Source: Escherichia coli (GTDB lineage: Bacteria > Pseudomonadota > Gammaproteobacteria > Enterobacterales > Enterobacteriaceae). From it: a DNA stretch of 64,000 bases. The notes under the pieces are model-generated. The model saw nothing but the letters and a program-made list of their open reading frames with translations. It had not been told where the DNA came from and did not search any database. This document shows, piece after piece, positions 85 through 3,233 of this stretch. The position numbers and the translations under genes are program-made. The DNA is taken from assembly GCF_003018255.1 (NCBI RefSeq), contig NZ_CP027440.1; one strand, written 5' to 3'. How positions within the stretch are numbered: the stretch's first letter is position 1; each line of letters starts with the position of its first letter.

Positions 85-1356
85 ATGCAGTATGAAGATG
101 AAAACGGCGTGAATGAACCGTCACGCCGACGTTTACTGAAAGGGATTGGTGCGCTGGCGCTGGCGGGAAGTTGTCCGGTCGCTCATGCACAAAAAACGCA
201 AAGTGCGCCGGGTACGCTTTCACCGGATGCACGCAATGAGAAACAGCCGTTTTATGGTGAGCATCAGGCAGGGATCCTGACGCCACAACAGGCTGCAATG
301 ATGCTGGTGGCGTTTGATGTGCTTGCCAGCGATAAAGCCGATCTTGAACGGTTGTTTCGCTTGTTGACTCAGCGTTTTGCTTTTCTGACTCAGGGCGGAG
401 CGGCACCAGAAACGCCAAATCCGCGCCTGCCACCACTCGATTCCGGCATTCTTGGCGGCTACATTGCGCCCGATAATCTCACCATAACGTTATCGGTGGG
501 CCACTCATTGTTTGATGAGCGCTTTGGCCTTGCGCCACAGATGCCGAAAAAGTTGCAGAAGATGACGCGTTTCCCCAACGACTCGCTGGATGCGGCGTTA
601 TGTCATGGTGATGTGTTGCTACAAATTTGCGCCAACACCCAGGACACGGTGATCCATGCGCTGCGCGATATCATCAAACACACGCCGGATTTGCTCAGCG
701 TGCGCTGGAAGCGGGAAGGGTTTATTTCCGACCACGCGGCGCGTAGTAAAGGTAAAGAGACACCGATTAATTTGCTGGGTTTCAAAGACGGCACTGCCAA
801 TCCCGATAGCCAGAATGCGAAGTTGATGCAAAAAGTGGTGTGGGTGACGGCAGATCAGCAGGAGCCTGCGTGGACAATCGGTGGTAGCTACCAGGCGGTG
901 CGGTTGATTCAGTTTCGGGTGGAATTTTGGGACAGAACGCCGCTGAAAGAACAGCAGACGATATTTGGGCGTGATAAGCAAACCGGCGCGCCGCTGGGAA
1001 TGCAGCATGAGCATGATGTGCCTGATTACGCCAGCGATCCGGAGGGGAAGGTGATCGCGCTGGACAGCCATATCCGGCTGGCGAATCCCCGCACGCCAGA
1101 GAGTGAGTCAAGTCTGATGCTGCGTCGTGGCTACAGTTATTCGTTGGGCGTCACCAATTCCGGGCAACTCGATATGGGGCTACTGTTTGTCTGCTACCAA
1201 CACGATCTGGAAAAGGGCTTCCTGACAGTACAAAAAAGGTTGAATGGAGAGGCGCTGGAGGAATATGTCAAACCTATCGGTGGCGGCTATTTCTTTGCGC
1301 TGCCGGGTGTGAAGGACGCGAACGATTATCTCGGAAGCGCATTATTGCGGGTTTAA
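85..1356 (+). CDS. efeB: Deferrochelatase / dye-decolorizing peroxidase EfeB, Tat-secreted
   Basis: 423-aa ORF; N-terminus has a twin-arginine signal ([17 protein letters not shown]...AHA); length matches EfeB. Confidence 0.95.
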
Positions 1357-1362
1357 TGTTTT

Positions 1363-1492
1363 TAGGCGGATAAGGCGTTTACGCCGCACCAGGCGTTCGT
1401 GCGCTGATGCGACGCTTGCGCGTCTTATCATGCCTACAATCGGTGCGGGTTCGGTAGGCCGGATAAGGCGTTCACGCCGCATCCGGCAAGCT
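1363..1492. repeat. REP/BIME cluster (repetitive extragenic palindromes)
   Basis: Several copies of the GCCGGATAAGGCGTTYACGCCGCATCCGGC-type palindromic unit in alternating orientation between efeB and phoH. Confidence 0.7.
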
Positions 1493-1539
1493 TTTACCAG
1501 TACTGCGAATCCTGCTGAAAGCACACAGCTTTTTTATCA

Positions 1540-1557
1540 CTGTCATCACTTTGTCAT
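1540..1557 (+). promoter_or_regulatory. Pho box (PhoB binding site) of the phoH promoter
   Basis: CTGTCAT-cact-TTGTCAT: two 7-bp direct repeats with 4-bp spacer, matching the PhoB box consensus, upstream of phoH. Confidence 0.6.
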
Positions 1558-1981
1558 CTTTCCAGTAGAAACTAATGTCACTGAAATGGTGTTTTATGGT
1601 TAAATATAAGTGAATATATTGTTGCAATGAATGCGAGATCTGGTGTAATTATTAAGTAGCAGCGGAAGTTCCCGGCAGTGATAGTCAGTCACTATGGAGA
1701 TCGCGGATGGTAACGTCCTGTACTGGACAATGTTTTGTTAAGCAAGGCTCCACCACTCGCGGAGATTTCTCCTCCGGTAGCAACTTCGTCACTCTGTATT
1801 TTTCTCACTTCCTCTCTTTACTCGTGTTACCGACGCCGCAAACGGTGTGCGTAGCCGTTTTTCGGCATTTTATCCAAAAGCAAACTATGGCTTACAAGGA
1901 AGCCAACCCTCTGATGTTCGTGCGCATAATCGCGCTGCCAACGGCGCGTGTGATGAATACAAACAACTCAAGGTGCTCTCC

Positions 1982-2770
1982 ATGGGAAGACAAAAAGCAG
2001 TGATCAAAGCTCGTCGCGAGGCAAAACGTGTGCTGAGACGGGATTCGCGCAGCCATAAGCAGCGTGAAGAAGAATCGGTCACCTCGCTTGTGCAAATGAG
2101 CGGCGTAGAAGCCATTGGTATGGCCCGCGATAGTCGCGATACCTCGCCCATCCTCGCGCGAAATGAAGCGCAATTGCACTATCTGAAGGCTATTGAGAGT
2201 AAGCAGCTGATATTCGCCACGGGCGAAGCCGGGTGCGGAAAAACCTGGATCAGCGCAGCAAAAGCGGCAGAGGCCCTGATACATAAGGATGTCGACAGGA
2301 TTATCGTCACCCGTCCAGTTCTGCAAGCCGATGAAGATCTTGGCTTCTTACCTGGTGATATCGCAGAAAAGTTTGCTCCCTATTTTCGCCCGGTCTACGA
2401 CGTGCTGGTTCGGCGCTTAGGGGCTTCCTTTATGCAGTACTGCCTGCGACCGGAAATAGGGAAGGTGGAAATTGCGCCGTTCGCCTATATGCGTGGACGT
2501 ACCTTTGAAAATGCAGTCGTCATTCTTGACGAGGCGCAGAATGTGACTGCCGCGCAAATGAAAATGTTTTTAACCCGCCTCGGGGAGAACGTGACGGTTA
2601 TCGTCAACGGTGATATCACGCAATGCGATTTGCCTCGCGGCGTGCGCTCCGGATTAAGTGACGCGCTGGAACGTTTCGAAGAAGATGAAATGGTCGGGAT
2701 CGTCCGATTCGGTAAAGAGAATTGCGTACGTTCGGCACTTTGCCAACGTACGCTACATGCATACAGTTAA
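1982..2770 (+). CDS. phoH: Phosphate-starvation-inducible ATPase PhoH (start uncertain; see findings)
   Basis: Walker A motif GEAGCGKT and PhoH-family core; ATG at 1982 preceded by AAGG. The ORF track opens at GTG 1847 in the same frame; a separate upstream ORF (ATG 1707) is in another frame. Confidence 0.85.
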   Translation: MGRQKAVIKARREAKRVLRRDSRSHKQREEESVTSLVQMSGVEAIGMARDSRDTSPILARNEAQLHYLKAIESKQLIFATGEAGCGKTWISAAKAAEALIHKDVDRIIVTRPVLQADEDLGFLPGDIAEKFAPYFRPVYDVLVRRLGASFMQYCLRPEIGKVEIAPFAYMRGRTFENAVVILDEAQNVTAAQMKMFLTRLGENVTVIVNGDITQCDLPRGVRSGLSDALERFEEDEMVGIVRFGKENCVRSALCQRTLHAYS

Positions 2771-2819
2771 GTGTATTATCGGCGCAGAGCCCGGGCGAAC
2801 CGGGCTTTGTTTTGGGTGT

Positions 2820-3233
2820 TTATACCCGGACTAGCGTTTTTTCTGAAACCACCATTTTTATTTGTCCCTGACTGGTGAAGTGTACGCTCATCCTGTGGCT
2901 TTTTTGTAGTTGCTGATAAAGCTCATCAGGTATTGCTAAGCTCTCTGCATATTCTTGCGGCGTATATTGGTATGCTGCATGATGCTGCTGTTTTTTAAAA
3001 CGCAGCTTATTGTACAATGCCCAGACGATTAACACGACGGCATTCGCCACTGCCAGCAAAAAATAGAACTGAAGTCGGCTTCTGGCCTCGCTTTGCCAGT
3101 AATAACCCGTCAGCAGATCAATGGCGAATAAGAATATGAACAAAGCAAATAATGTCCACAAGATGGTTGTGGCAACATAATCAACCAGTAAACGTACTGG
3201 CGATTGTCGGGTCGTAATAATTAGATTGTTCAT
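2820..3233 (-). CDS. pgaD: PGA biosynthesis protein PgaD
   Basis: 137-aa membrane protein immediately downstream of pgaC; length and sequence match PgaD. Confidence 0.9.

Follow-up and report, generated by a model that had tools for sequence, protein, structure and literature searches.

Two overlapping reading frames at phoH of Escherichia coli probably represent a translated, structured leader and a conserved 262-residue PhoH core

PhoH is a widespread ATPase of the Pho regulon. We analysed the phoH locus in a 64-kb stretch of an Escherichia coli genome (contig NZ_CP027440.1), referred to as the window, in which two overlapping reading frames occupy the region that forms a single frame in E. 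coli K-12; coordinates are positions of the window and all features are on the plus strand unless stated. The two frames probably belong to one Pho-regulated transcript and appear to represent a translated, structured leader that acts in cis, followed by the conserved 262-aa core of PhoH. According to this reading, which draws on comparison of related genomes, a 98-codon leader open reading frame (ORF) would be translated from a conserved Shine-Dalgarno (SD) sequence and ATG approximately 150 nt past the Pho box, and the 262-codon PhoH ATPase would be made from its own SD and ATG at 1982, leaving the core untouched. In the K-12 type of allele, carried by ~63% of E. coli, the frames are in phase and would yield a 354-aa PhoH, whereas in the window type, carried by ~36%, changes within 1729-1838 put the leader in the +1 frame, in which translation would stop 22 nt inside phoH.

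Reading frames at phoH and the start of the conserved product

An ORF of 98 aa opens at ATG 1707 and closes at TGA 2001-2003 (1707..2003), and a second ORF, of 307 aa, runs from GTG 1847 to the stop codon at 2768-2770 (1847..2770) and contains an in-frame ATG at 1982-1984. The locus that they form (1707-2770) sits between efeB and the convergent gene pgaD. The first of these, the leader ORF (98 codons plus TGA), occupies the +1 frame with respect to phoH, and its last 22 nt overlap the start of that gene. Its start signal (1696..1709) comprises an SD sequence (GGAGA, 1696-1700) and ATG 1707-1709, which corresponds to the start codon of the 354-aa PhoH of K-12. A TAG codon at 1778-1780 shuts the PhoH frame upstream and blocks extension of PhoH to ATG 1707, and an unbroken frame linking the upstream ATG with the phoH stop, the hallmark of the long K-12 PhoH, is absent from the window; 1707-2770 measures 1064 nt as compared with 1065 nt for K-12 b1020. 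The frames, the in-frame stop, the end at 2003 and the 1064-nt span had been noted in the original prediction and were reproduced at the same coordinates, and its estimate of about 150 nt between the Pho box and ATG 1707 agrees with the location of this box at 1540..1557. The Pho box, the PhoB binding site of the phoH P1 promoter, reads CTGTCATCACTTTGTCAT, with one mismatch to CTGTCAT-N4-CTGTCAT, and is the sole match to this pattern in the window. Chromatin immunoprecipitation sequencing has identified the homologous sequence TGTCATCACTCTGTCATC, ahead of phoH, as a PhoB site (PMC10294691).

Sequence comparison points firmly to the 262-aa core from ATG 1982 (1982..2770, 262 aa plus stop) as the conserved product. 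The Pfam model PF02562 matches residues 57-261 of the 262-aa protein (E=2e-76, 256 bits against a cut-off of 27), the equivalog model NF007827 matches residues 9-261 (E=1e-153, 510 bits against a cut-off of 380) and the Walker A motif GEAGCGKT (2222-2245) is invariant in 24 aligned proteins. ATP binding or ATPase activity was reportedly described by Kim and colleagues in 1993, for K-12 PhoH only. The start region of the core (1970..1984), which consists of the SD sequence AAGGTG (1970-1975), 6 nt and the ATG at 1982-1984, is near-invariant as AAGGTGC..TC[CA]ATGGGAAGAC in all 84 phoH loci compared, and the core has codon periodicity, which the sequence upstream of 1982 lacks. GTG 1847, the start of the 307-aa frame, was rejected because it lacks an SD sequence and is absent from most relatives.

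An internal start in phoH has been published. In K-12, Ribo-RET places phoH amongst the genes with in-frame internal starts, together with speA, yebG, yfaD and yadD (Meydan et al., bioRxiv 10.1101/520783), and that preprint describes the phoH internal site, which is probably the homologue of 1982, as conserved and as showing enhanced synonymous-site conservation. As for those internal starts, the ATG homologous to 1982 lies within the K-12 ORF; in the window, by contrast, 1982 is not internal to a longer ORF and is the sole start able to give PhoH. Third positions of core codons 1-45 (1982-2116) have a conservation of 0.79-0.93 across the 84 loci, compared with 0.56-0.72 in most later blocks, which agrees with the published synonymous-site conservation. 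Two antisense ORFs on the minus strand, 1885-2151 and 1892-2326, were considered as the cause of the high nucleotide conservation and rejected, as they are broken in 31 and 76 of the 84 loci, respectively.

The leader ORF across Enterobacteriaceae

Species representatives were scanned for phoH, which gave 80 loci with 92-100% PhoH amino acid identity; the 79 with enough upstream flank, the window and three further E. coli genomes make up a census of 83 usable loci. In all 83, an SD sequence and ATG of the form GGAGATCGCG[AG]ATG (with minor variants) precede the core ATG by 270-282 nt; each locus has GGAGA-N6-ATG, and the segment corresponding to 1696-1709 is near-invariant. From the conserved ATG to position -27 there is not a single stop codon in the ATG frame in any of the 83 loci, whereas the other two frames average 3.1 and 5.6 stops, and only 3.3% of shuffled sequences remain open. 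Since the leader ORF is open in 83 of 83 loci, it appears to be kept by selection, which implies that it is translated. A small ORF of 38 codons from ATG 1887 was also considered and rejected, this ATG being missing in Salmonella and other loci (L037, L050).

The way in which the leader ORF ends falls into three classes. It is fused in frame with phoH in 52 loci, which include Enterobacter, Klebsiella, Kosakonia, Buttiauxella, Pluralibacter, Phytobacter and K-12-type E. coli. In 26 loci it is in the +1 frame and ends at +22, at a conserved TGA (+19 to +21); this configuration is shared by the window, Escherichia albertii, E. whittamii, Salmonella arizonae and diarizonae, most Citrobacter and one Enterobacter cloacae. 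In the remaining five, from Kluyvera, Pseudescherichia and relatives, it is in the +1 frame and ends at -23, at a TAA (-26 to -24). Thus the ORF is open in every locus and is either fused to phoH or ends near its start, and neither the third phase nor an earlier end was found amongst the 83 loci. The site of the shift differs between lineages: in the window it lies in the spacer 1779-1831, in E. albertii, Citrobacter and Salmonella it is a reduction of five Ts to four at 1858-1862, and in locus L059 (a further +22 locus) and the Kluyvera group it lies elsewhere. Because these sites differ, the shift must have arisen independently, at least three or four times. Across 32 species the length of the spacer 1779-1831 is 54 nt plus or minus multiples of 3; the exceptions, the window and L059, both have 53 nt and both are frame-shifted.

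The layout at the end of the leader ORF bears on a further explanation, namely that a programmed -1 frameshift at C AAA AAG (1991-1997) rejoins the leader ORF to phoH and provides shifted strains with a long isoform. AAA AAG (1992-1997) is in the leader frame one codon before the TGA, a -1 slip would land in the PhoH frame, and the arrangement resembles dnaX in having an SD-like AAGGTG 15 nt upstream and a weak hairpin (2000-2017) 3 nt downstream. CAAAAAG occurs in 25 of the 26 +22 loci but shows no link with the shift, since 36 of the 52 in-frame loci carry it too. Moreover, L059 has CAGAAAG, the leader of the five -23 loci is closed ahead of the site, the heptamer begins with C instead of A, so that the canonical X XXY YYZ pattern is absent, and the peptide that would be fused is unconstrained. 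We consider frameshifting very improbable, and the dnaX-like look of 1991-1997 is probably coincidental.

A different possibility is that the 92-residue extension is functional in K-12-type PhoH and has been lost in the window strain, so that the allele classes differ at the protein level. Fusion is indeed the majority state, in both the census and E. coli, and some residues are conserved in in-frame species, for example GLQGSQ.SDVRAHNR. However, conservation in the 92-codon extension of the 52 in-frame loci is even across the three codon positions (0.76/0.77/0.76), in contrast to ~0.97/0.98/0.70 in the PhoH core, and the nucleotides that encode the conserved residues are equally or more conserved where they are read in another frame. 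Over the last 100 nt of the leader, identity is 0.82 among in-frame loci and 0.90 among shifted loci, with core third-position divergence matched between the two groups (0.68 in-frame and 0.70 shifted); these nucleotides are therefore under equal constraint in either reading, ...GLQGSQPSDVRAHNR... or ...MAYKEANPLMFVRII.... In addition, the in-frame state has been lost on several occasions, and within E. coli the two forms occur side by side and recombine. The extension and the 98-aa leader product fall outside all Pfam and NCBIfam models, and AlphaFold2 predictions for 24 long-form proteins gave a mean predicted local distance difference test score of 36, too low to bear on whether the extension is disordered. 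A functional extension is accordingly unlikely in our view. The comparative evidence instead indicates that the sequence of the leader peptide is not under selection and that the first 92 residues of K-12 PhoH correspond to a leader that lacks constraint at the peptide level.

The constraint on the leader appears to lie on its nucleotides and on RNA hairpins. RNAalifold analysis of 32 diverse leaders predicted 57 pairs, and 96.7% of the cells scored form a pair. Compensatory double changes were observed at 17 pairs, compared with 10.3±1.4 in shuffles and 6-10 in slid controls, and in 83 cells, compared with 31.8±4.6 in shuffles and 13-25 in slid controls; in neither case did any of 500 shuffles reach the observed value. 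Hairpin H4 (1757..1778) pairs 1757-1763 with 1773-1778 and has compensatory changes at three of its six pairs. In the composite hairpin H5/H6 (1832..1869), all seven pairs of H5 (1832-1838 with 1863-1869) and two of the four pairs of H6 (1843-1846 with 1854-1857) covary, and the run of five Ts at 1858-1862, four in E. albertii, Citrobacter and Salmonella, lies inside it. Hairpin H9 (1931..1948; CGCGCTG-CCAA-CGGCGCG, pairing 1931-1937 with 1942-1948) shows compensatory changes at three of six pairs. As the five pairs of H7 (1889..1904; GGCTT-ACAAGG-AAGCC) are invariant in the 32 species, covariation provides no evidence either way for this hairpin. The occurrence of G-U intermediates on the sense strand points to structure in RNA rather than a DNA palindrome. 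An Rfam scan of 1450-2250 detected no family on the leader (1540-1998), the other hits being a sub-threshold match to naRNA4 and noise.

These observations also bear on the proposal that the region is a plain untranslated 5′ leader in which both ORFs are fortuitous and the K-12 annotation is over-extended. In its favour, the NCBI Prokaryotic Genome Annotation Pipeline (PGAP) never annotates the extension, which has no codon periodicity, matches no protein family and harbours covarying RNA hairpins. It does not account for an ORF that is open throughout the census at a position where the other frames and nearly all shuffles are closed, for spacer indels that are multiples of 3 in in-frame species, for the near-invariance of the SD and ATG at 1696-1709 or for the product of ~39 kDa that Kim and colleagues reportedly observed in K-12, and we assign it a low probability. 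The suggestion in the original prediction that the upstream region is leader holds, although the leader is almost certainly translated from ATG 1707, judging from its conservation, and is not an untranslated one.

Allele classes within E. coli, annotation and flanking sequence

In NC_000913.3 (MG1655), phoH (b1020) has 1065 nt and encodes 354 aa, in agreement with the length given in the original prediction, from the ATG homologous to 1707. The K-12 gene (b1020, NP_415539.1) and its counterpart in the window share the efeB-pgaD locus, the Pho box, the upstream SD and ATG and the internal SD and ATG. They differ in that K-12 has 354 continuous codons, whereas in the window a net change of -1 nt within 1729-1838 sets the 98-codon leader ORF apart from the 262-codon core. 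Pairwise alignment locates this net shift in the variable, C-rich and G-poor segment 1779..1838. Of ~38 differences from K-12 across 1500-2770, 24 are packed into 1729-1833 and include several small indels, and 1850-2050 is identical. The original prediction had posed a single-base indel relative to K-12 and a shorter, core-only product as alternatives. Both are true together, since there is a net loss of 1 nt in the 5′ part of the gene and the conserved product appears to be the 262-aa core; the loss is nevertheless not one indel but the sum of clustered substitutions and small indels.

The window arrangement is a frequent natural variant and not a sequencing error or a private pseudogene. 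Of 5,426 complete E. coli genomes, 1,964 carry the 60-mer at 1779-1838 (1,945 at ≥99% identity) and 3,413 its 61-nt K-12 counterpart, which gives shares of ~36% for the window type and ~63% for the K-12 type. In-frame representatives are K-12, O157:H7, EC958 (sequence type ST131), GW-AmxH19 and VCSW7; shifted representatives are Nissle, JNE23-011, 7/2, SCU-485, RM11911 and wlxctx60. VCSW7 and wlxctx60 are mosaics of the two allele halves, and recombination must therefore take place inside the leader. An error in sequencing or assembly, or a recent frameshift that turned a gene for a 354-aa protein into a pseudogene, might be suspected from the shortfall of exactly 1 nt relative to the K-12 ORF and from the T-runs near the difference. 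The read or homopolymer error raised in the original prediction is ruled out by the abundance of the allele amongst complete genomes, and ~24 clustered changes are not one homopolymer slip. Furthermore, the same phase is reached in E. albertii, Salmonella and Citrobacter from different shift sites, and the PhoH domain retains its own SD and ATG. The core ORF and its start signal being intact, the allele common and the arrangement present in other genera, phoH in the window does not qualify as a pseudogene, and we regard this explanation as extremely improbable.

Two further observations concern variation in this region. Leader codons 8-16 (1729-1745) are not the same in the two E. coli allele classes (QCFVKQGS against HVLDNQRA), a difference that derives from a pair of +1 and -1 indels ~8 nt apart that restores the frame, and recombinants with the downstream segment exist (VCSW7 and wlxctx60). 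The nearest complete genome, JNE23-011, has 99.8% identity over the first 12 kb of the window; all 16 differences between the two in 1200-3200 fall in the phoH leader and gene (1643-2783) and 10 of the 12 coding differences are at third codon positions, so this interval looks like a small recombination tract.

In current annotation, PGAP starts phoH at the homologue of 1982, giving 262 aa, in all RefSeq genomes inspected, including K-12 MC1061, Nissle 1917, EC958 and O157:H7; amongst the records inspected, 354 aa is found only in NC_000913.3. RefSeq entries for PhoH (WP_000533536.1 and WP_000533522.1; NF007827, 'phosphate starvation-inducible protein PhoH') agree with our reading in giving a 262-aa product from ATG 1982 and differ from it in leaving the leader ORF unannotated despite the comparative evidence that it would be translated. 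In samples spread over several thousand PGAP-annotated genomes, nothing is annotated on the variable leader segment. The discrepancy has therefore already been settled de facto by PGAP, the internal start is published and phoH is ordinary as a gene. Our analysis explains the disagreement between 354 aa in K-12 and 262 aa in PGAP, the 262-aa core being by all indications the conserved protein, and for this reason the window strain should not be flagged as carrying a frameshifted phoH.

A pattern scan for sigma-70 promoters and terminators in 1450-2100 called no promoter-like site and returned one antisense terminator-like match, which is hairpin H7, so that computation gave no position for P1 or P2. 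P2 can be placed loosely from a footprint of phosphorylated ArcA that overlaps it (PMC3798270). AT-rich blocks at 1590-1655, in the interval between the Pho box and the leader, are kept across genera (GAATATATTGTTGCAATGAA and GGTGTAATTA; conservation 0.8-0.9). Their location matches that of this footprint over P2 in the literature (PMC3798270), and they contain no called sigma-70 consensus. Further upstream, the efeB-phoH intergenic region contains a palindromic element at 1457-1530 that resembles repetitive extragenic palindromic (REP) elements and matches Rfam naRNA4 (RF02564) on both strands with 39.5 and 25.8 bits, below the gathering threshold of 59.5. Between the convergent phoH and pgaD genes, a GC-rich hairpin, AGCCCGG-GCGAA-CCGGGCT, is followed by TTGTTTT (2788-2813); by eye this resembles an intrinsic and possibly bidirectional terminator, for which the pattern scan made no call.

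Possible action of the leader and comparison with known systems

If the leader is translated, the ribosomes on it could act in cis in two ways, which need not exclude each other. They may shield a long, C-rich and G-poor leader from Rho-dependent termination. The spacer 1779-1831 has 32% C and 9% G in the window and on average 35% C and 9% G in 32 divergent species, and it therefore resembles a Rho utilisation (rut) site of the kind associated with Rho-dependent attenuation; C-rich, G-poor composition is typical of Rho-binding sites. In addition or instead, ribosomes may open structure and reach the PhoH start, by termination and reinitiation where the leader ends at +22 or -23 and by read-through where it is fused. 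Action of leader translation in cis would explain why only those phases that bring ribosomes to the PhoH start region were found. More tentatively, the ~330-nt phoH leader of the Enterobacteriaceae may constitute an undescribed cis-regulatory device with at least four covarying hairpins, in which translation of the full length would be required, the peptide would be irrelevant and the phase free, and output would be set post-transcriptionally by Rho attenuation and/or reinitiation coupling. Such a leader could make the synthesis of PhoH responsive to translational or energy status under phosphate starvation. We found no description of a conserved, structured, obligatorily translated and phase-free phoH leader in the searchable literature, and regard it as a modestly novel side result.

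Several points weigh against the view of a translated, structured leader followed by the PhoH core. We infer translation of the leader from conservation only, and, as the 83 loci are phylogenetically related, they amount to fewer independent observations than their count suggests. A literature search for Rho dependence of phoH or an effect of bicyclomycin retrieved no relevant published evidence. With regard to structure, the fold of the single leader sequence is no more stable than that of shuffles (z = -0.25) and, because thermodynamic stability equals that of shuffles, the support for structure comes solely from covariation. Two putative long-range helices that would mask the PhoH start, in which 1669-1673 would pair with the PhoH AUGGGAA (1984-1988) and the leader AUG (1703-1709) with 1915-1921, do not show covariation. 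Finally, Kim and colleagues reportedly observed, in 1993, a product of ~39 kDa in K-12 maxicells. If this holds, K-12 does make the fused form, which could serve a function missing from the window strain; the latter would then make only a PhoH of ~29 kDa and the 98-aa leader peptide. A paper on the MazF regulon was dropped as a lead on phoH, since its match concerns ybeZ.

The probable nature of the 5′ region as a translated and structured leader, and not a protein domain, has practical consequences, as it guides the choice of construct and start codon in expression, tagging, knock-out and complementation experiments. The two allele classes also constitute a natural experiment, in which one part of the species (~63%) makes the fused long form and the other (~36%) cannot, and thus offer isogenic-like material with which to study the extension and translation of the leader.

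Masking of a start site over a long distance is known from the coat and replicase genes of phage MS2, and leaders with Rho-dependent attenuation are known from mgtL-mgtA and corA. The phoH leader has features in common with coupled cistrons and leader-ORF control in general: an upstream ORF with its own SD sequence ends within ~25 nt of the downstream start, the peptide is unconstrained and the leader is structured and includes a C-rich, G-poor stretch. It differs from these systems in length, as its ORF of ~92-98 codons occupies the whole leader whereas known leader peptides typically have fewer than 30 codons, and in being fused to the downstream gene in most relatives, the role of coupling or Rho at phoH being proposed here from sequence alone.

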